A DNA stretch of 64,000 nt from an uncultured Lachnospiraceae bacterium (GCA_964638675.1 CAZXAU010000005.1:69313-133312), one strand, 5' to 3'. Shown: positions 15,305 through 28,528, numbered from the stretch's first letter. Notes: generated by a model not told the origin, from the sequence alone. A program made the numbers and translations.

Positions 15305-15380
15305 CTGGGTGTGGCGCAGTTGGGAGCGCGCTACCTTGGGGTGGTAGAGGCCGCTGGTTCAAGTCCAGTCACTCAGACCA
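15305..15380 (+). tRNA. tRNA-Pro (anticodon GGG), CCA encoded
   Basis: A hand-folded cloverleaf fits: acceptor CTGGGTG/CACTCAG, D stem GCGC/GCGC, anticodon stem CTACC/GGTAG with loop TTGGGGT, T stem GCTGG/CCAGT with loop TTCAAGT. A TTGACT-17-TATAAT promoter lies at 15240-15268. Confidence 0.9.
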
Positions 15381-15381
15381 A

Positions 15382-15415
15382 AATCGGAGGTTTTTAAAAA
15401 CCTCCGATTTTCTTT
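15382..15415 (+). terminator. terminator after tRNA-Pro
   Basis: AATCGGAGG-N10-CCTCCGATT followed by TTCTTTT. Confidence 0.7.
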
Positions 15416-15503
15416 TATTTTCTCGCAAAAACTCGTTTTTCGCGTTTGACAGTGCCCTTCCATTTCGTCCTTAAAATCGATCATTTTTGCTATATTTTCA
15501 GCC

Positions 15504-15541: not shown

Positions 15542-15623
15542 GAAAAAAAGCAGTAAATAATCAGGCTTCGGAAAGAGTTTTTTTCATCTCTTCGAAGCCT
15601 TTTCGCATATCACTTTTTGAACC

Positions 15624-15791
15624 TTAGTTGCTCCATATGACGATCTTTCTGCCGATCTCGTCGCATTTGGCGATGATTCTTTTTAGCTCAAGAATCATCT
15701 CGATCATCAGCTCCTTCTCGCTCATGTTCATAAAGCGTGCTCTTTCGGATTCAAGATCGTTCTCAGATTTTCTCTTCATCGAATTAAACAT
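15624..15791 (-). CDS. 55-aa hypothetical helical protein (below the ORF-track cutoff)
   Basis: Own translation: MFNSMKRKSENDLESERARFMNMSEKELMIEMILELKRIIAKCDEIGRKIVIWSN. It is the last gene of the HNH mini-operon and is followed by hairpin GGCTTCG..CGAAGCC (15573-15612). Confidence 0.4.
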   Translation of the reverse strand: MFNSMKRKSENDLESERARFMNMSEKELMIEMILELKRIIAKCDEIGRKIVIWSN

Positions 15792-15799
15792 ACTATCAC

Positions 15800-15982
15800 T
15801 CAATTCTTTCTGCCGCTATCACGGTTGCTGCGATATTCTTCGTTGTTCGGATTGCATTGATTGGAATGATTATCATGATTGGCATGATAAGCGCTGTTAT
15901 TTGGATTGTTCTGATTTGCGTAATTGTCAAGTTGAGCTTTGCTATGTGTATGTCCCGATACACCGTGTCCGCCTTTTCCCAT
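15800..15982 (-). CDS. 60-aa His/Asn-rich protein with duplicated DN(Y/H)(A/S)NQxNPNNxxY motif
   Basis: Listed ORF. Internal repeats are LDNYANQNNPNNSAY and HDNHSNQCNPNNEEY. Starts 14 nt after the HNH gene stop. Confidence 0.5.
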   Translation of the reverse strand: MGKGGHGVSGHTHSKAQLDNYANQNNPNNSAYHANHDNHSNQCNPNNEEYRSNRDSGRKN

Positions 15983-15995
15983 GGTATTTACCTCC

Positions 15996-16307
15996 TTAAA
16001 GTTTTACGATTTCATATTCTGATCTGCTTCCTTTGACTCGTTCAGCCCGAAAGCGTTTCCCATTTGCTTTCCAGTGAGGGAAGCTATCCGCTTTTTCCTC
16101 GTTGGTATCACGATGGCAAATTTCGATGTTTCCGAGAATATCAGCTCCTCCCACAGAAAGCGGTCTGATGTGGTCAAGTGTCGGATGATAGGCACTGTTC
16201 GGATCACCACAGGCTGACTTTTTCATCAAACGTCCTGCGTAATCGTATGCCTCTTGCTTTGATCCGTATACTTGATTCCAAACATCAATTGTTCTGTACT
16301 TTGACAT
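15996..16307 (-). CDS. small HNH-family nuclease
   Basis: HPTLDHIRPLSVGG...NIEICHRDTNEEK matches the H-N-H beta-beta-alpha-metal motif. RBS is AAGGAGG. Confidence 0.7.
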   Translation of the reverse strand: MSKYRTIDVWNQVYGSKQEAYDYAGRLMKKSACGDPNSAYHPTLDHIRPLSVGGADILGNIEICHRDTNEEKADSFPHWKANGKRFRAERVKGSRSEYEIVKL

Positions 16308-16424
16308 TTTGAGTACCTCCTTTTTATAATGTCGACTATATTATCGCATATTTGAGAGCATTGTGCTATGAACCAACGGTTCAAAAAAGCAGGAGCACCT
16401 CTCGTTGAGAAGTACTCCCGCTTT

Positions 16425-16625
16425 TCATAGACTTTTTGAAATCTCTTGAATTCTCATAAGTCTGCTTGATTTTGGCGTTCTTTGTCCTGAGCAATAATAT
16501 GCTATCATTCGGGGCGTAACATCTAATAGTTCTGCCCACTTCTCCTGCGAGATACCTGATTTGTCTACTATGCTTCGGATGTAATTCGCCATTTGGTAAT
16601 CGATAGTTCGATTTTCTTTTTTCAT
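16425..16625 (-). CDS. XRE-type HTH protein (66 aa)
   Basis: SQEKWAELLDVTPRMIAYYCSGQRTP helix-turn-helix. Start moved to ATG 16625 after AAGGAGG. It has its own TTGACT-17-TATAAT promoter (16687-16715). Confidence 0.7.
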   Translation of the reverse strand: MKKENRTIDYQMANYIRSIVDKSGISQEKWAELLDVTPRMIAYYCSGQRTPKSSRLMRIQEISKSL

Positions 16626-16721
16626 ATTTGCAAACCTCCTTTGCATAGACAACGCAGTGCGCCAAAGGTCACAAATACTATAACACATTATATCATTTTT
16701 CACATTTTAAGTCAATACTAT

Positions 16722-17906
16722 TTACAAAAATAAATTGTAACCGTATCTATTTTCTATTTCCTTGTATAGTTTTGTGTAGTTAACTCGTGGTGTATATGGA
16801 TATGAATTCAATAGTTTATATCTTATGATACTATTTACGGCTTTATCCAAAGAAGCAAAGCCAAGATAGGTGTCAATCCTATCCATAAATAGTGAGTTAC
16901 AATATTGCACTTCGCTATCCGTTAATACTTTTACATCGTAAATGTACCGATCATTCTCATGATATTGATGTCCCGTTTCTATTGTTTGAGGTAACTGGTA
17001 ATAATTTCGATTTGGTTCAAACAACTTCGGATTTGGGATTTTTGTTAGATCATCTAATTTGGGCACAGCAATTCTGAAATTTGAATACTTGTCCTTCAAT
17101 TTAAAAAAAGGAGAAATTAAAACGATCATTCGCTTAGAAGAGATTGGAAACATCATGAAATTTTCGCTAAAATTGCCTTGAGCAATACAGTCAGAATATA
17201 TTTGCTCAAGTATATTTTTGGGGAAATTCGCTTGTTTTGCCATCATTAGAACGTCTGTAATGAAGCCTGTTTTCTTCATGTTGTGAACATACACCCCATC
17301 CCATCCATTTTCATTTTCAGAGGTCATGCCAATATCAGTAATGACAAACTCATCGCAATTATTTGAAGTATCCCAAAATCCTACATACGCACCATTTATC
17401 ACAATCGCCCATCGGTACGCCGGATATGTCTTATCGGGATGTTCCAGTATTTCTTTGGGAGTTCCATCTGTGTCTAAAATCACGTTCAATGTTCGCATCC
17501 AATAGTCAAACGCTGTTTCTCCGTCAATCTGCTTTTCTTCAAATGGCAAATTAAATATTTTATGGAGTTTCTTTTCCTTTTGCAAAAATATTTTGCTTTG
17601 CATTGATCGCAAAACAGAAATAAGCAAAAACTTTTTGATTAGTAATAGCTGAGGTCTTGTTAAACTAATTTCTTTATCTGCTTTCAAAAGTACATTTGAT
17701 AATAAATTTCCAAACTGCGATTCAATTTTTACATTTAGTTTATTTTCAGTGTCTCTGTCATATAAATCATCTACCGCAAATGCGTGTTCCGGTACAATGT
17801 TTTCTTGAAATTCTCCCGTCTTTACATTGTACAAGCATAGCTTATCGCTAAACTTTCTTAAAACAAGTCTTGGCACATAATGGCTTGAAATACTTCCTTT
17901 TGACAT
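16722..17906 (-). CDS. DUF4238-like protein of unknown function
   Basis: The N-terminal HYVPRLVLRKF motif is what I recall for Pfam DUF4238. The gene is visibly AT-richer than its surroundings. RBS is AAAGGAG. Confidence 0.65.
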   Translation of the reverse strand: MSKGSISSHYVPRLVLRKFSDKLCLYNVKTGEFQENIVPEHAFAVDDLYDRDTENKLNVKIESQFGNLLSNVLLKADKEISLTRPQLLLIKKFLLISVLRSMQSKIFLQKEKKLHKIFNLPFEEKQIDGETAFDYWMRTLNVILDTDGTPKEILEHPDKTYPAYRWAIVINGAYVGFWDTSNNCDEFVITDIGMTSENENGWDGVYVHNMKKTGFITDVLMMAKQANFPKNILEQIYSDCIAQGNFSENFMMFPISSKRMIVLISPFFKLKDKYSNFRIAVPKLDDLTKIPNPKLFEPNRNYYQLPQTIETGHQYHENDRYIYDVKVLTDSEVQYCNSLFMDRIDTYLGFASLDKAVNSIIRYKLLNSYPYTPRVNYTKLYKEIENRYGYNLFL

Positions 17907-17964
17907 GTCAGGGATCTCCTTTCGATTTAATTTAAAACCTTTGCTCTGATAAACACTTTTTTAA

Positions 17965-18618
17965 TTACAGGCTTTCAGGATTTTCGAGCAGATCCTCTAT
18001 ACTGCAACCAAGTGTTCTTGCGAGCTTATACAAGGTTTGTGCCTGCGCTTTGTCTATATCGTTGACCTTTTGCTCGTATAACTGAATGGAGCGGATTGCC
18101 ACCCCCGAAGCCTTGGCAAGTTCGGATTGCGACAAGCCGCGACTTTCTCTGATCTTGCGGAGTTTTGTGTCTGTGATCACCTCATTATATCGGCGTTCCA
18201 TAGATTCGCAGAAACGGCTGATATCCATTTCATGAAATGTCGGATACATGGAAATGATCTGCGTCAGCGGAATACGGTTGAATATATCCTTGAAGCGTTT
18301 TGCGTTTTCCCATTGATACTGTGCAAGCGCCCAACCTGCCCAATATTCGGGTGAGCGTTCTTCCGAAAACACGGGCTTCGGGAATTTTTCGTCAGGATAT
18401 ACGCTGTGTAGAATATCTATTGCCATTTCTTCACCTGACTTGCCCGATATTACCGCAGGATTGCCACGCTCAAATTGTTCGGCAACTCCCGACTGTACAA
18501 ACAGCTTTGCAAACCAATCCGGTTTCTGTCCGCAGACATTTATCGCATAGTCAAATGCATTCGCCAAGTTCTTTATGGCGTCATTCAGATATAATTCGCT
18601 GTATGCGCGGATCGTCAT
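17965..18618 (-). CDS. DUF3791-like N-domain fused to a C-terminal XRE HTH (putative antitoxin/regulator)
   Basis: C-terminus LRKIRESRGLSQSELAKASGVAIRSIQLYEQ. The start overlaps the upstream gene by 38 nt. RBS is GAGAGGAG. Confidence 0.7.
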   Translation of the reverse strand: MTIRAYSELYLNDAIKNLANAFDYAINVCGQKPDWFAKLFVQSGVAEQFERGNPAVISGKSGEEMAIDILHSVYPDEKFPKPVFSEERSPEYWAGWALAQYQWENAKRFKDIFNRIPLTQIISMYPTFHEMDISRFCESMERRYNEVITDTKLRKIRESRGLSQSELAKASGVAIRSIQLYEQKVNDIDKAQAQTLYKLARTLGCSIEDLLENPESL

Positions 18619-19279
18619 TTTGGATCTCCTCTCTCAATATATCCATAACAAAGATATCGTCAAGATATGTGCGGCTCTTTTTTATCTCGTCTTTGTATGT
18701 CTGTCTTGCAGTGGTATCACGGTCAAGAAACTTCGGATAGTATATTTCCTTTTCTACAGGCTCTGCGGATAAAAATTCAATCTGATCAAATGCTTTTTCG
18801 GATATCAGTACGACCTGTGCACCGAGTTTGCCAAGTCGGAGTGCTTTGTCAAGGCTTCGCAGAGGAAGTGCGTTGCTTACAAATGACTGTGCATAGGAAA
18901 AGTAAGAGTCATCGGCACGATATCCGATAACCACATCGTATCCTGTAGTATCTACCGAATAGTGATCTATCATATATTCTCTTGCATCTATTGCAATTTC
19001 CTCTTGCAGAGAGAATATACGATTTTGCAGAAGGAGGGCAATCCAGTTCAGCACGCTATGGTTGCCGTCGAGCAAATTAAGAATTTTCAGACCGTCCGTG
19101 TTTAAGCTATACCTGTTAACGAAACCGTCTTTGTTCTCTTTGCATGCCCATTCTTTTGCCATCTCCGGTATCTCAGTACAATAGAACCCTTTTCCGTAAT
19201 CGTTATGTTCTTTGCCGAGTGCGAGCTGCGGTTTCTTTATAATATGATCTGTTCCGTGAAGGATAGTAATCTCAGGCAT
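18581..19279 (-). CDS. DUF3990-like protein (possible ADP-ribosyltransferase-fold toxin)
   Basis: ILHGT..DYGKGFYCT..AKEWA at the N-terminus (H-G-T / Y-x-T pattern). Confidence 0.65.
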   Translation of the reverse strand: MPEITILHGTDHIIKKPQLALGKEHNDYGKGFYCTEIPEMAKEWACKENKDGFVNRYSLNTDGLKILNLLDGNHSVLNWIALLLQNRIFSLQEEIAIDAREYMIDHYSVDTTGYDVVIGYRADDSYFSYAQSFVSNALPLRSLDKALRLGKLGAQVVLISEKAFDQIEFLSAEPVEKEIYYPKFLDRDTTARQTYKDEIKKSRTYLDDIFVMDILREEIQNDDPRIQRIISE

Positions 19280-19297
19280 ATAAACAGTCTCCTTTTC

Positions 19298-19349
19298 TAT
19301 CGCTGTAACAATACAATTATATTATATCATTACAACGATAGTTTGTCAA
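19298..19349 (-). promoter_or_regulatory. consensus sigma-A promoter with palindromic operator
   Basis: On the minus strand: TTGACA (19349-19344), 17 nt, TATAAT (19326-19321). The 12-bp inverted repeat CTATCG(T/C)TGTAA brackets the -10 box (19298-19309 / 19330-19341). Confidence 0.6.
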
Positions 19350-19449
19350 GCAATGAGACAAATATTCTAATAGATTTTTGAAAGAAAAGTGATATGCGGA
19401 TCTTTTGTCCACATGCCACTTTTTCTTTGCCTACTGCACCTCAGATTTT

Positions 19450-24190: not shown

Positions 24191-24526
24191 CTATTCTGAT
24201 CCCTTTTGTACTTTGTAGTTTTCGCCCCACACTTTCATGGAATCAAGAATCGGCTGCAAGGACTTTCCAAGATCGGACAAAGCATATTCTACCCTTGGAG
24301 GAACTTCGGGATAAACTGTACGTGTAATAATTCCGTCTGCTTCCATCGAACGTAAACTATCGGTCAACACCTTTTGGCTGATCCCCTCTAAATTCTTTTG
24401 CAGCTCATTAAATCGCCAAGAACGCACAAGTAAATTACGTATAATTAGCAGTTTCCATTTATTTCCTATTAGCTGTACGGTTGTAGCAACCGGGCATTCG
24501 GGAATCAATTCTTCTTTTGTTTTCAT
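24191..24526 (-). CDS. HxlR-family transcriptional regulator
   Basis: CPVATTVQLIGNKWKLLIIRNL..RFNELQK..PPRVEYALSDLG. Divergent from the peptide operon. Confidence 0.85.
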   Translation of the reverse strand: MKTKEELIPECPVATTVQLIGNKWKLLIIRNLLVRSWRFNELQKNLEGISQKVLTDSLRSMEADGIITRTVYPEVPPRVEYALSDLGKSLQPILDSMKVWGENYKVQKGSE

Positions 24527-24852
24527 AATAATCTCCATTCCGCCGCACTGCGGCAGCACAAATAGTTATGAAATTCTCCTGCGTTTTCGAAGAAAACAAA
24601 ATGGGGCAACCCATTTTAAGGAGAATTTGTGCGTGAAACAGATGTGTACCCGCGTTGGATGCACTTTTCTTTCACGCTAAACCCCTATAACTTTAAAAAC
24701 GAATGTTGCACTCATATTATACTGCAACACTCTCGAAAAATCAATAGGTATAGTGTATGACACAAAAAGTTTAAAAACTTTTTCAGTTACGAAATCCGCA
24801 TAACTGCGCAATAGTTACAAAAATGTAACCTAAGTTATAAAAAAGTGCGTAC

Positions 24853-24881: not shown

Positions 24882-24934
24882 ATAGGCACAGAGCGTAAAA
24901 CAGTACTCTGAATATTTATAAGGAGGTTATGATC

Positions 24935-25171
24935 ATGGCACTTTCTAACCTGTTTGGATGGAATGAGAAAAAAGCTACGTCATCGTGTAGCTCCGCTTGC
25001 GGTGCAGCAGACAAGTCTGCGGATAAGCCTGCTGAAAAGCCTGCCGCTTGCGGCTCTGCTTGCGGTGCAGCAGACAAGTCTGCGGATAAGCCTGCTGAAA
25101 AGCCCGCCGCTTGCGGTTCTGCTTGCGGTGCAGCAGACGAGTCTGCAGACAAGTCTGCGGACAAGAAGTAA
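24935..25171 (+). CDS. ACGX-repeat precursor peptide (78 aa)
   Basis: AGGAGG lies 8 nt upstream of ATG 24935. Sequence: MALSNLFGWNEKKATSSCSS-(ACGAADKSADKPAEKPAACGS)x2-ACGAADESADKSADKK. The 63-bp DNA repeat starts at 24995, 25058 and 25121. Confidence 0.75.
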   Translation: MALSNLFGWNEKKATSSCSSACGAADKSADKPAEKPAACGSACGAADKSADKPAEKPAACGSACGAADESADKSADKK

Positions 25172-25278
25172 TTTCTTCTGCCCATACCAAACTGTTCTCG
25201 GTGAGAACACTTTTGCCGGGAACATTCGATTATTACTCGGTCAAACCGATTTATATATAATTGCGAGGTCTTTATTAT

Positions 25279-26334
25279 ATGAAACAGTATTTTTCTGAAG
25301 CGAAGCAATACTTCGCTTTTCAGTGGCATATCACAGATGAGTGCGATCAACGATGCAAACACTGCTACATCTTTTCTGAAAACAACTGCAAAAAGCCGGA
25401 TTCAATGAATTGGGGACAAATTGAGGAAACCTTTTATAACTGTCTTGATTTCTGTGAAATGTATAACCGTTTGCCGTATTTCTACATAACAGGAGGCGAT
25501 CCGATTCTGCACCCGGACTTTTGGCGTCTGCTGGGTCTGATGAAAGAACGGGAAATTCCTTTTACTATTCTTGGCAATCCTTTTCATTTGAACGATGAGG
25601 TCTGCCGAAAATTAAAGGAGTACGGTTGTCAGAAATATCAGCTCTCTTTAGACGGTATGCGTGAGACGCACGACTGGTTTCGTAAACCCGGCAGCTTTGA
25701 TATTACTCTTGAAAAAATCGGCTGTATCAATCGTGCAGGAATCCGCAGCGTCATTATGACGACCGTATCGGGCACAAACATTGAAGAAATTCCCGATATT
25801 ATTGACACAGTCGTTAAACATAAAGTAAATGTATTTGCCTTTGCACGCTATTGTCCCACCGGCGAAGAAAAAGATGTCAATATAGAGCCTATGCGTTACC
25901 GTGAATTGCTTGCAGTTTGTGACAAAAAATTCAAGGAATATGAATCTGCCGGATGTGATACTTATTTCAATAAGAAAGACCATCTCTGGACGCTGTATGA
26001 GTTTGAGACGGGTACATTTAAGATTCCCGAAGCCGTGGAAGAAGGCATGATATACGGCGGCTGTAACTGCGGCAACTGTCATTTGACGATTCTGCCTACA
26101 GGAGATGTATTCGCTTGCCGCAGAGTACAAAACAGTAAGGTCGGTAATGTGTTTGAAGATCGCCTTGCCGATGTGTGGGTCTGCGAAATGGAAGCCTATA
26201 GGGAATATACAAAGTTTGAAAAATGCTCAAAGTGCGAACTCCTTGCATTCTGCCGCGGCTGTCCCGCTGTTGCAAGCGGCAAGGACGGTAACTTTTACGC
26301 TGCCGATCCGCAGTGCTGGAAAGTAATCTCTTAA
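25279..26334 (+). CDS. radical SAM/SPASM-domain peptide maturase
   Basis: CDQRCKHCY (CX3CX2C), ITGGDPILHP, and SPASM cysteines GGCNCGNCHLTILPTGDVFACR and CSKCELLAFCRGCPA. Confidence 0.85.
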   Translation: MKQYFSEAKQYFAFQWHITDECDQRCKHCYIFSENNCKKPDSMNWGQIEETFYNCLDFCEMYNRLPYFYITGGDPILHPDFWRLLGLMKEREIPFTILGNPFHLNDEVCRKLKEYGCQKYQLSLDGMRETHDWFRKPGSFDITLEKIGCINRAGIRSVIMTTVSGTNIEEIPDIIDTVVKHKVNVFAFARYCPTGEEKDVNIEPMRYRELLAVCDKKFKEYESAGCDTYFNKKDHLWTLYEFETGTFKIPEAVEEGMIYGGCNCGNCHLTILPTGDVFACRRVQNSKVGNVFEDRLADVWVCEMEAYREYTKFEKCSKCELLAFCRGCPAVASGKDGNFYAADPQCWKVIS

Positions 26335-26351: not shown

Positions 26352-26927
26352 ATGTTAATGGATATTATTAAAGCCCGTCATTCTATCAGAAAATATACGG
26401 ATAAACAGATCGGCCGGGAAGATATGGAATTGATACTCGAAGCCGGTAATTATGCACCAAATGCAGGCGGCGGTCAGCGAAGTGTGTTGGTAGGTGTGCG
26501 GAACAGAGAACTGACGACAAAGATCGGAATAATGAATCTGGCAAAATTTGACCGTACCAATCTTGCCGGTTCTTATGTTTCAAAAGAACAGCCAAGTAAT
26601 ATTGATGATCCGACCATTAAAAACGGGTTTTACGGTGCGCCTGCTGTTGTGGCTATTTTCGGACAGGATAATTTTATGTTTCGTGTTGCCGACGCTTTCT
26701 GTTGTGCCGAAAATATGGTCTTACAGGCAACGGAGCTTGGCATTTCTTCCTGCATAATCTCTCGCGGAGAAGAAACTTTTGTGAGTGATGAAGGCAAAGC
26801 ACTCTTGAAGGAATGGGAAATCCCCGAAAACTACTCTGCAATCTGCTTTGTGATCCTCGGTTACATTGACGGGAATGAACCACAGACAAAGCCGAGAAAG
26901 CCGGGGCGGGTGAAGATCGTTGAATAA
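26352..26927 (+). CDS. nitroreductase-family oxidoreductase
   Basis: IIKARHSIRKYT..APNAGGGQ motifs. 18-nt gap after the rSAM gene. Confidence 0.8.
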   Translation: MLMDIIKARHSIRKYTDKQIGREDMELILEAGNYAPNAGGGQRSVLVGVRNRELTTKIGIMNLAKFDRTNLAGSYVSKEQPSNIDDPTIKNGFYGAPAVVAIFGQDNFMFRVADAFCCAENMVLQATELGISSCIISRGEETFVSDEGKALLKEWEIPENYSAICFVILGYIDGNEPQTKPRKPGRVKIVE

Positions 26928-27705
26928 TACACAAGCCGAAAGACGTGACTATTTGATCCGTGAATTACTTCGTGAGCAACCCAGGTATTCCGACACGGAA
27001 ATTCCGGAAGGAGAACAAGAACAAAAAAATCTGCTCAGATCGCTTTTCAATATCAGACAACCTTTGCCTGTCAGCGAAGAGTTTTTAAGAGAACAGAACG
27101 CTTATTTACAGGAAGAAACCGAAAGAAAAGGAATTACGGATATAGCTGATCTAACGCCATATCGGGATAACATTTATCTGTGGCAGGGAGATATTACTAC
27201 TCTCCGTTGTGATGCTATCGTCAATGCGGCGAACAGTCAGATGCTGGGTTGCTTTTGCCCTTGCCATGGTTGTATTGACAATGCCATTCACACAGCTGCC
27301 GGTGTTCAGCTTCGGCTTGCATGCAACGAGATCATGCAAAAACAGGGGCATGAGGAAGAAACGGGCAAGGCAAAAATCACACCGGCTTTCAATCTGCCGT
27401 GCAGATATATTCTGCACACTGTCGGTCCGATCGTTTTCGGCAGACTAAAAGAAAATGATGAAAAACTGCTTGGTGATTGCTATCGTTCCTGTTTACAGCT
27501 TGCCGAACAAAACGGAGTGAAAAGTATTGCTTTCTGCTGTATCTCCACAGGCGAATTTCATTTTCCGAACAAACGAGCAGCACAAATAGCCGTACAAACG
27601 GTACAGGAATACAAACACAAAACCAATGGCGAAATTAAGGTGATATTTAATGTTTTCAAAAATGTCGATTACGAAATCTACCGAGAATTACTCAGTTCAA
27701 ATTAA
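26920..27705 (+). CDS. macrodomain protein (ADP-ribose hydrolase type)
   Basis: WQGDITTLRCDAIVNAANSQMLG..GCIDNAIH..ILHTVGP. The only possible start is TTG 26920, which overlaps the nitroreductase stop. Confidence 0.85.
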   Translation: MNNTQAERRDYLIRELLREQPRYSDTEIPEGEQEQKNLLRSLFNIRQPLPVSEEFLREQNAYLQEETERKGITDIADLTPYRDNIYLWQGDITTLRCDAIVNAANSQMLGCFCPCHGCIDNAIHTAAGVQLRLACNEIMQKQGHEEETGKAKITPAFNLPCRYILHTVGPIVFGRLKENDEKLLGDCYRSCLQLAEQNGVKSIAFCCISTGEFHFPNKRAAQIAVQTVQEYKHKTNGEIKVIFNVFKNVDYEIYRELLSSN

Positions 27706-28528
27706 GCAATTAAAAAAAGTAATAAATGATGTCGATGCTATCCTGATTGGTGCTGGAGCAGGACTTTCCACCTCTGCCGGATTTGTTTATAACGGGGAGC
27801 GTTTTGAACAGTATTTTTCAGACTTTGCGAAAAAATACGGCTTTCATGATATGTATTCGGGCGGCTTCTACCCGTATAAAACGCCGGAGGAGCATTGGGC
27901 GTATTGGAGCAGATATATTTATGTGAACCGCTATATGGACGCTCCGAAGCCTGTATATGACGATCTGTTAAGGCTTGTACAGAACAAAGATTATTTTGTG
28001 ATTACCACGAATGTTGACCATTGCTTTCAGAAATCAGGATTTGACAAAAAGCGGTTGTTTTATACGCAGGGCGATTACGGTCTGTTTCAATGCAGCGTGC
28101 CATGTGATACAGACACCTACGACAATGAAGATGTGATCCGCCGTATGATGAACGAACAAAAAGATATGAGGATTTCCACAGAGCTGATTCCGAAATGTCC
28201 GAAGTGCGGAAAACCGCTGACAATGAACCTGCGTTCTGATGATAAATTTGTCGAGGACGAAGGTTGGCTGAAAGCTGCCCGGCAGTATGAGAATTTTCTG
28301 CGTACAAGGCAAGATCAGAACATTCTGTTTTTAGAGCTCGGTGTTGGATATAATACGCCTGTCATCATCAAATATCCGTTTTGGCAGATGACGGCGAAGA
28401 ATCCCAAGGCGGTCTATGCCTGTATCAATTACGGCGAAGCTGTCTGCCCGAAAGAAATTGAAAAACAGTCGATCTGCATTGACGGCGATATAGGAACGGT
28501 ACTTAACGATTTAGAAGAAAAAATTTAG
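27650..28528 (+). CDS. class-M sirtuin (SirTM-type, ADP-ribosylating SIR2 family)
   Basis: ILIGAGAGLSTSAGF, TTNVDHCF, and YTQGDYG where the sirtuin catalytic HG normally sits. AAGGTGA lies 6 nt before ATG 27650. Confidence 0.8.
   Translation: MFSKMSITKSTENYSVQIKQLKKVINDVDAILIGAGAGLSTSAGFVYNGERFEQYFSDFAKKYGFHDMYSGGFYPYKTPEEHWAYWSRYIYVNRYMDAPKPVYDDLLRLVQNKDYFVITTNVDHCFQKSGFDKKRLFYTQGDYGLFQCSVPCDTDTYDNEDVIRRMMNEQKDMRISTELIPKCPKCGKPLTMNLRSDDKFVEDEGWLKAARQYENFLRTRQDQNILFLELGVGYNTPVIIKYPFWQMTAKNPKAVYACINYGEAVCPKEIEKQSICIDGDIGTVLNDLEEKI

Follow-up and report, generated by a model that had tools for sequence, protein, structure and literature searches.

A conserved DUF3990 gene pair with a putative self-regulating partner, and its separation from a neighbouring DUF4238 gene block, in an uncultured Lachnospiraceae bacterium

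We analysed three consecutive genes, here called A, B and C, in a 64,000-nt stretch of DNA from an uncultured Lachnospiraceae bacterium (GCA_964638675.1 CAZXAU010000005.1:69313-133312; this whole stretch is the window, and coordinates without a locus name are window positions). The three genes and their promoter lie on the minus strand, and a first-pass annotation of the sequence had read them as a single autoregulated toxin-antitoxin (TA) or abortive-infection module consisting of a DUF3990 protein (A), a DUF3791-like protein fused to a helix-turn-helix (HTH) domain (B) and a DUF4238 protein (C). We found that the conserved unit is a two-gene A/B cassette and not the triad. The reading that we favour, with a probability of roughly 60%, is that A and B form an autoregulated, toxin-first pair that is TA-like or a candidate for defence, an HTH-fused variant of the system catalogued as PDC-M42, and that C is unrelated to it. 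A type II TA-like or abortive-infection-like interpretation is thus reasonable for A/B, given an overlapping gene pair, an operator and PDC-M42 relatives, while C is excluded from it.

Relatives of the A/B pair were collected in two ways. A scan with B, using one genome per GTDB species, gave 63 loci (fetched with 6 kb on either side). To remove the bias of finding loci through B, metagenome contigs were scanned with A, and this gave another 80 (with 3 kb on either side), for a total of 143 independent loci. A DUF3990 gene was located directly upstream of B at every B-ascertained locus in which both genes were intact. The overlap between the two genes took three values among the 48 pairs measured, namely 35 nt (26 pairs), 38 nt (18) and 23 nt (4); in the window, the 38 nt shared by the end of A and the start of B and the gap of 58 nt between B and C are as first described. 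Full-length A and full-length B were present together in 62 of the 80 A-ascertained loci, and the rest comprised loci in which B stopped after its N-terminal domain (2/80), loci with a frameshifted B (2/80) and loci cut by a contig end (14/80). Degraded loci had lost the catalytic region of A in six cases out of six. At L035 (1156-1960), B is intact and residues 1-168 of A are deleted, leaving only the last 64, and at L053 (5874-6390) an in-frame-looking deletion fuses residues 1-43 of A to residues 88-217 of B. Such a pattern of decay, though drawn from a small sample, is what would be expected if A were harmful without B.

The gene that follows the pair is not conserved. DUF4238 was found at none of the 143 loci: tblastn with C detected nothing within the fetched flanks of the 63 genome loci and the 80 metagenome loci, nor on 17 viral contigs carrying A/B pairs. 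The gene after B was on the opposite strand in 28 of 50 loci. The 96 nearest downstream open reading frames (ORFs) matched 143 different Pfam families, none of them more than four times, and DUF4238 was not among the recurrent families listed for these neighbours. After the closest relative of the window pair (L100, 3438-7657; B 92% identical) come prophage genes, and portal and terminase genes are close by in this prophage-like region; after another of the closest relatives (B 83% identical) comes a GH38 mannosidase gene. The order A-B-C recurred only in two short, 100%-identical Logan contigs (L064 and L065). The three-gene module of the first-pass annotation therefore did not survive the comparison, and a failure of the three families to co-occur elsewhere is an outcome that the annotation had itself named as refuting it.

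The region upstream of A is conserved along with the pair. We aligned 49 upstream regions, namely that of the window and those of 48 other loci with unalignable flanks. These sequences are unrelated upstream of the −35 hexamer and share a conserved promoter core, with a spacer of 17 nt in 45 of 49. In the window the promoter is of sigma-70 type and is indeed perfect (TTGACA-17-TATAAT, score 12/12). Inside the core lies a conserved 16-bp palindrome, TATCRTTGYRAYGATA, whose final two bases are the first two of TATAAT; box 1 accordingly fills the spacer and extends 2 nt into the −10 hexamer. Allowing up to three mismatches, a match to box 1 was present in all 49 regions and was always fused to the −10 hexamer, with zero mismatches in about 30. 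Two box hits at the same threshold were present in 30 of 49 regions, with a box spacing of 27 bp in 23; the second box typically lies that distance downstream, between the −10 hexamer and the ribosome-binding site. The 12-bp inverted repeat reported earlier (CTATCGTTGTAA / TTACAGCGATAG) is present, and is better described as two copies of this palindrome, its arms being the outer halves of the two boxes (left in box 1, right in box 2). Box 1 is the sole zero-mismatch match to TATCRTTGYRAYGATA within the 64-kb window. Chance accounts for the three-mismatch sites in the window, considered as possible further B sites (18, with an expectation of 9.2 +/- 3.9), and no box lies ahead of C.

Distant pairs (40-48% identity) possess the same layout with different symmetric arms: TATCAC/GTGATA, TACTCC/GGAGTA and TACTTC/GAAGTA. 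The recognition helix of B changes in step with the arms (RSIQ[LM]YEQ, RQIQLFEQ and RT[IVL]QQYE), and that of the window B is RSIQLYEQ. The palindrome was not present at pairs lacking an HTH, i.e., L167 and the canonical PDC-M42 pair of L008. The conserved box fused to the −10 hexamer, the co-variation of arms and helix, and the joint occurrence of HTH and operator make a strong comparative case for binding of B to these boxes and occlusion of its own promoter. A palindromic operator that covers the promoter of its own operon is, on this evidence, almost certainly where the HTH of B acts, in agreement with the operator first proposed. A second perfect 12/12 match, TTGACA-18-TATAAT, occurs on the plus strand at 16301-16330, antisense to the 5' end of an HNH-like gene and in an AT-rich stretch, which makes a consensus promoter by itself weak evidence; the recurrence of the promoter/box layout at 48 other loci goes beyond a lone match of this kind.

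Gene A matched Pfam DUF3990 (PF13151) over profile positions 2-152 of 152 (E 7e-43; 146 bits against a cutoff of 32.2) and the PADLOC model PDC-M42A (E 1e-44). Pfam places DUF3990 in its ADP-ribosyl clan, that of the ADP-ribosyltransferases (ARTs) (PMC7955679), and the C-terminal domain of the Serratia polymorphic toxin Rhs5 is a DUF3990 domain (PMC4524185). An AlphaFold2 (AF2) model of A was obtained with a predicted local distance difference test score (pLDDT) of 80.3 and a predicted template modelling score (pTM) of 0.77. When this model was searched against the PDB with Foldseek, every one of the top 50 hits was an ART catalytic domain, and those of PARP4, PARP1/2, the tankyrases and the insecticidal ART SAIP were among them. 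Sequence searches for relatives of solved structure found none for A or C, and for B found only the HTH.

An alignment of 11 divergent DUF3990 proteins, including short classical members encoded on plasmids of C. tetani and B. fragilis, left H8, G9, D27, G29, G31, F32, Y33, W79, R87, D115, G119, A122, L152 and Q155 of A invariant. The sole match of the profile of this alignment in the PDB was diphtheria toxin, with H8 aligned to H21 (YHG) and Y33 to Y54 (GFY), which we take to be the catalytic His and Tyr of the toxin. The HG...GFY pattern pointed out earlier thus corresponds to the His and Tyr of the H-Y-E class. At the head of the next core strand comes D115, a candidate for the third catalytic residue, which would give an H-Y-D triad. 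Model and motifs support the assignment of A to the ART clan at the level of fold and motif, with H8/Y33/D115 as the predicted catalytic triad, and A may well be a growth-inhibiting, NAD+-dependent modifier. Two further parts of A are helical, an insert and an extension at the C-terminus (about residues 177-232). As the extension is found only in subfamilies partnered with a B-type N-domain and is missing from those partnered with DUF3791, it is a candidate A/B interface.

The C-terminal 65 residues of B form a standard Cro/C1-type HTH. Residues 153-210 matched HTH_3 (E 2e-11), Foldseek returned CapH, C.AhdI, SinR and 434 Cro at root-mean-square deviations of 1.2-1.9 A, and the best NCBIfam match for B, the MqsA family, covered the HTH part only and fell below cutoff. 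The N-terminal 147 residues are confidently predicted to be all-alpha (whole-model pLDDT 88). This N-domain had no structural match among the top 50 PDB or BFVD hits, in which only the HTH was matched, and no Pfam family match even at E<=10. It did match the PADLOC model PDC-M42B (E 3e-8), with 25% identity to the bona fide PDC-M42B protein in L008. The DUF3791 label that the first-pass annotation had attached to it was rejected, the DUF3990 and DUF4238 labels of the other two proteins being upheld by Pfam: at E<=10 there was no hit to PF12668, none of 83 sampled diverse members of the N-domain family matched it, and hhalign against two genuine DUF3791 proteins, which do match PF12668 (E 1e-18 and 7e-20), gave a probability of 0.1-0.2%.

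An exhaustive HMMER search recovered the N-domain family as stand-alone proteins of ~145-160 aa, as proteins of ~210-220 aa with an HTH, or as longer forms, and HTH_3 matched 32 of the 83 sampled members. Retention of the N-domain beside DUF3990 even without any HTH (canonical PDC-M42, L167) indicates that its primary role is tied to A and not to DNA. In these sequence comparisons, what stays constant beside the DUF3990 protein is the N-domain, to which the HTH is an addition; the N-domain probably neutralises A. Strictly conserved in the family are Y6, Y10, E64, W93 and H129, plus an HE(M/A)D motif, with E130 near-invariant.

In our favoured reading of the A/B pair, the promoter P(AB) would drive A, and the start codon of B, positioned inside the end of A, would couple translation of B to that of A. 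B dimers would bind boxes 1 and 2 and repress their own operon, and the N-domain would hold A inactive. Loss or titration of B would then both de-repress the operon and free A, which would ADP-ribosylate its target and stop growth, with the outcome that the element is stabilised or a phage infection aborted. The presence of PDC-M42 relatives among the PADLOC candidates makes an abortive-infection or defence role compatible with this scheme. A wider proposal is more doubtful, and we offer it tentatively: DUF3990/partner pairs may constitute a very large family of ART toxins of gut anaerobes in which A hits nucleic acid or a core translation or replication factor, and in which a newly described all-alpha domain neutralises A and the module has repeatedly gained an HTH, on the partner or on the toxin, and with it self-regulation; at the window locus, a B-controlled promoter might have captured C, a promoter-less DUF4238 defence gene, so that one repressor would gate two unrelated effectors.

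Several observations weigh against the reading of A/B as a toxin with its neutraliser. Two contigs carry an intact A with a frameshifted B, so that A may be tolerated alone, although one of them has 1.2x coverage and a sequencing error is possible. Most A/B loci are found among housekeeping genes rather than in obvious defence islands. The Foldseek E-values for A are weak (best 3e-3) and the TM score is ~0.33, with a best probability of 1.0; the diphtheria toxin match is not significant alone (E 0.31); and D115 was chosen as third catalytic residue because it is conserved and opens a beta-strand, not by superposition. The invariant polar residues E64 and H129, with E130 near-invariant, raise the prospect that the N-domain acts enzymatically and not as a stoichiometric inhibitor. 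The PDC systems, PDC-M42 among them, are explicitly put forward as candidates (bioRxiv 10.1101/2024.01.29.577857).

If the N-domain is an enzyme, it might neutralise A by removing the modification that A makes, in the manner of a type IV, DarG-like antitoxin. The conserved polar and aromatic residues of the N-domain would suit such a role, ART toxins with hydrolase antitoxins exist (DarTG is an example), and in L100 an ADP-ribosylglycohydrolase gene, with Metallophos and HAD genes beside it, is found four genes upstream of the pair. However, similarity of the N-domain to macro, ARH or NADAR domains was detected neither in Pfam nor among the top 50 PDB fold hits, and the restriction of the C-terminal extension of A to N-domain-partnered subfamilies fits a binding interface better. 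We consider enzymatic neutralisation unlikely.

Somewhat harder to sustain is the alternative that A is not toxic at all and is a detoxifying or regulatory ART acting on a small molecule or a host protein, as in Arr, with B a ligand-responsive repressor whose N-domain senses the substrate. The predicted triad is H-Y-D, not H-Y-E, and Arr, the rifampin ADP-ribosyltransferase, is an H-Y-D enzyme; an N-terminal sensor, an HTH and a promoter operator make up the classic layout of an inducible repressor; and many of the loci lie among metabolic or housekeeping genes. Opposed to this are the persistence of the N-domain beside DUF3990 where an HTH is absent altogether, the enzyme gene being first and overlapping, the finding of intact A without B only in two possibly erroneous frameshifts, and the use of DUF3990 as the tip of an Rhs toxin (PMC4524185). 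A role of this kind is, in our view, a slim prospect.

The separation of C from the pair is seen from the side of C as well. Gene C matched Pfam DUF4238 (PF14022) at E 1e-18 (68.3 bits against a cutoff of 27), and had no PADLOC model match at E<=0.01. It is, as had been remarked, AT-richer than its neighbours (GC 0.32-0.36 versus 0.42-0.45 for A/B). C is the first gene of a separate conserved block of ~2.6 kb and five genes, the others being D, E and two small ORFs (Table 1), and does not belong to the A/B module. At other loci (L066-L072, L094-L097), C homologues of 61-70% identity are followed by a gene for an HTH protein of 66-72 aa, in most cases by an HNH-like 103-aa gene after it, and then by small ORFs of ~55-61 aa; what precedes the block is a rhodanese, an IS110 transposase or a flavodoxin-like gene. 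The window DNA is 74% identical to block loci lacking A/B from 17932-17934 down to about 15333-15500. That homology begins just 26-28 nt before the ATG of C indicates that C brings no promoter of its own. Neither the B-C nor the C-D junction has a predicted terminator, the first strong hairpin coming only after the last small ORF of the block, and no promoter was predicted between B and C. With no terminator to stop it and a promoter-less C, transcription from the A/B promoter probably reads through into C at this locus, which would be a local accident of juxtaposition and not a conserved design. Where the DUF4238 block follows a rhodanese gene, the distance is 35-73 nt, and DUF4238 seems always to borrow an upstream promoter. 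At L070 the block adjoins HipA-like and Hachiman (HamA) genes.

A DUF3990 module is present within a few kb in three of about seven distinct contexts of the DUF4238 block. Besides the window, these are L097, where a pair of 48%/40% identity lies 2.6 kb upstream of the block with three metabolic genes between, and L094-L096, where an HTH-DUF3990 fusion and a 135-aa partner lie 1.9 kb downstream of the block, next to a type I restriction-modification methylase. Different DUF3990 subtypes at different positions and distances point to co-residence in islands rather than to a functional triad. An obligate three-component TA or abortive-infection system of DUF3990, HTH and DUF4238 proteins, for which the 58-nt same-strand junction of B and C, the promoter-less start of C and these three co-resident cases can be adduced, is very improbable in view of the missing DUF4238 at A/B loci, the other neighbours of the closest A/B relatives, the retention of D and E by C where A/B is absent, the dissimilarity of the three cases (in one of which the HTH is on the toxin) and the differing GC content of C.

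Table 1. Positions of the A/B cassette, its regulatory signals and the adjoining DUF4238 block in the window
Feature	Position	Strand	Basis or remark
−35 hexamer TTGACA of the A/B promoter	19344-19349	−	5-6/6 match in 42/49 aligned upstream regions
−10 hexamer TATAAT, preceded by TG (extended −10)	19321-19326	−	6/6 in 40/49 regions
Operator box 1, TATCGTTGTAATGATA, 16-bp palindrome	19325-19340	−	zero-mismatch match to TATCRTTGYRAYGATA
Operator box 2, TATTGTTACAGCGATA, degenerate second copy, lying 27 bp downstream of box 1 and covering about +1 to +16	19298-19313	−	
Ribosome-binding site AAGGAG, 9 nt ahead of the start codon of A	19289-19294	−	direct sequence reading
Gene A, 232 aa, DUF3990, predicted ART fold	18581-19279	−	Pfam, PADLOC, AF2 model/Foldseek
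Gene B, whole, 217 aa	17965-18618	−	
Gene B, N-terminal all-alpha partner domain (predicted), residues 1-147	18178-18618	−	distant PDC-M42B
Gene B, C-terminal XRE/Cro-type HTH, residues 152-212, proposed autorepressor	17983-18165	−	HTH_3
Gene C, 394 aa, DUF4238	16722-17906	−	Pfam
Promoter of D, TTGACT-17-TATAAT	16687-16715	−	
D, 66-aa HTH protein	16425-16625	−	
E, 103-aa HNH-like protein	15996-16307	−	weak HNH match, E 2e-4
Two small ORFs of the block, 60 and 55-59 aa	15800-15982 and 15624-15803	−	
Terminator hairpin after the last small ORF	about 15561-15600	−	−15.9 kcal
tRNA-Pro(GGG), abutting the block	15305-15380	+	

Comparison with catalogued systems places the pair closest to PDC-M42, a DUF3990 protein with a 138-aa partner that is one of 145 'guilt-by-embedding' candidates (bioRxiv 10.1101/2024.01.29.577857). 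As in PDC-M42, the ART gene comes first, the two genes are adjacent and both window proteins match the models of the system. Compared with a true member in L008, however, the window proteins score 150 versus 397 bits (A) and 32 versus 241 bits (B), i.e., 2.6-fold and 7.5-fold lower, and the window B is a 217-aa protein with a C-terminal XRE HTH and an operator, whereas the canonical partner of ~138 aa has neither. Both forms occur side by side in L008 (5340-8198), where a window-type pair with HTH is followed after 474 nt by the canonical PDC-M42 pair (A, E 6e-120; 138-aa partner, E 7e-73). A third architecture is found in L094 (7094-8351), with an XRE HTH on the N-terminus of a 282-aa DUF3990 protein, then a 135-aa partner and then HsdM. 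Judged by profile scores and domain make-up, the window pair is a divergent sister of PDC-M42 with an added HTH and operator that would make it self-regulating. What is new here is this HTH-fused variant with its putative self-regulation; the PDC-M42 kind was already catalogued. A literature search under the Pfam accession numbers and PDC names found nothing relevant.

The DUF3791-DUF3990 modules of B. fragilis pBF9343 and C. tetani plasmids share with the window pair the invariant H, Y and D and an organisation as a small overlapping operon on mobile DNA. In these modules, by contrast, DUF3791 comes first and a third small ORF follows, the DUF3990 protein is ~160 aa without the helical insert or the C-terminal extension, and the partner is not detectably related to the N-domain of B. 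With another partner family and another gene order, the window pair falls outside the DUF3791-DUF3990 modules in the strict sense.

Toxin-first order, which had been counted as a hallmark of TA systems, is a minority layout among them, represented by MqsRA, HigBA and HicAB. MqsRA and HigBA are toxin-first type II TA systems whose antitoxins combine an N-terminal toxin-binding domain with a C-terminal XRE HTH. The window pair resembles them in that the first gene encodes the (proposed) toxin, the genes overlap, the two-domain partner ends in an HTH and a palindromic operator lies in the pair's own promoter. It differs in that their toxins are RNases whereas A is predicted to have an ART fold, and in that the N-domain of MqsA is a zinc ribbon whereas that of B is unrelated to it and predicted to be all-alpha. 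ART-clan toxins are found in DarTG, whose antitoxin is a macrodomain, and in CmdTAC, which needs a chaperone. Xre-RES/MbcTA is likewise an ART-clan toxin system (PMC6436930, PMC12204516). It has in common with A/B an XRE-HTH antitoxin on promoter palindromes and an ART-clan, NAD+-using toxin (a predicted property of A) with a cognate neutraliser, but its antitoxin gene comes first. The toxins of Xre-RES, DarTG and CmdTAC belong to the families RES, DarT and CmdT, and no sequence relationship was found beyond clan level.

For C, the nearest precedent is a single-gene system: a DUF4238 protein alone protected E. coli against T7 and was found in P2-like prophage hotspots (Rousset et al. 2022, PMC9122126). 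C scores above the Pfam DUF4238 threshold in the same way, but differs in being part of a conserved block with an HTH gene, an HNH-like gene and two small ORFs.

The A/B family is large and widespread. Gut Firmicutes and Bacteroidota of humans and animals very commonly carry DUF3990, and we counted more than 8000 clusters of A-like proteins at 90% identity and 1326 clusters of the partner domain at 50% identity. Pairs of 60-80% identity are attributed to metagenome-assembled genomes of Parasutterella, Bacteroides, Alistipes, Hallerella, Spirochaetales and a Methanomethylophilaceae archaeon; this spread over very different phyla reflects either horizontal transfer or mis-binned contigs. A matched 76 plasmid records, mostly through distant classical DUF3990 genes on Bacteroides plasmids. 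A profile scan of IMG/VR gave the 17 viral contigs with A/B pairs, a scan of IMG/VR with a single sequence found nothing, and there was no match for A or C among the PHROG families. The A/B pair is thus sometimes prophage-borne and is not mainly viral.

Two modules, not one three-gene system, emerge where adjacency in a single genome had suggested the latter, and the proposed novelty of three genes together falls away. The two-gene family is plentiful, has clear limits and is amenable to experiment, and the window locus offers a compact entry point to it: a 1.4-kb two-gene cassette whose predicted triad H8, Y33 and D115 is open to mutation, a 16-bp operator with specificity classes that can be exchanged along with the recognition helices that match them, and natural variants that either carry or lack the HTH. 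Few ART-clan families have no assigned substrate, and DUF3990 is among them. Were toxicity, target and an anti-phage effect to be shown, PDC-M42 (and probably M10 and M13) would become a characterised ART-based system, and a new antitoxin or immunity fold would be defined.

The surroundings of the cassette agree in part with the island first described. Hen1 and Pnkp genes lie upstream of A/B on the same strand (PNKP_ligase, E 2e-166; Hen1_L, E 8e-99), the HNH-like gene is a weak match, and the ORFs inspected in the vicinity of the locus included no integrase remnant. The interval from the end of Pnkp (19747) to the A/B promoter contains, at 19394-19414 on the minus strand, a hairpin that resembles a terminator and has a T-run, an indication that A/B is transcribed apart from the Hen1-Pnkp operon. 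Pnkp/Hen1 were rejected as functional partners of A/B because they are not present at other A/B loci.

Further away on the plus strand, at 26920-28528, a macro-domain gene (E 9e-40) and an ORF whose SIR2-like match is weak (E 9e-4, short of the Pfam cutoff) overlap each other. The two form a possible ADP-ribosylation pair of SirTM/macrodomain type ~7.6 kb from the DUF3990 gene, and are not kept near A/B at other loci. At 24929-26334 (plus strand), an 80-aa ORF with three tandem ACGSACGAADKSADKPAEKPA-like repeats is directly followed by a radical SAM/SPASM enzyme and a nitroreductase, an arrangement that looks like a repeat-containing precursor of a ribosomally synthesised and post-translationally modified peptide with its maturase. 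An HxlR regulator gene is located at 24191-24559 on the minus strand.

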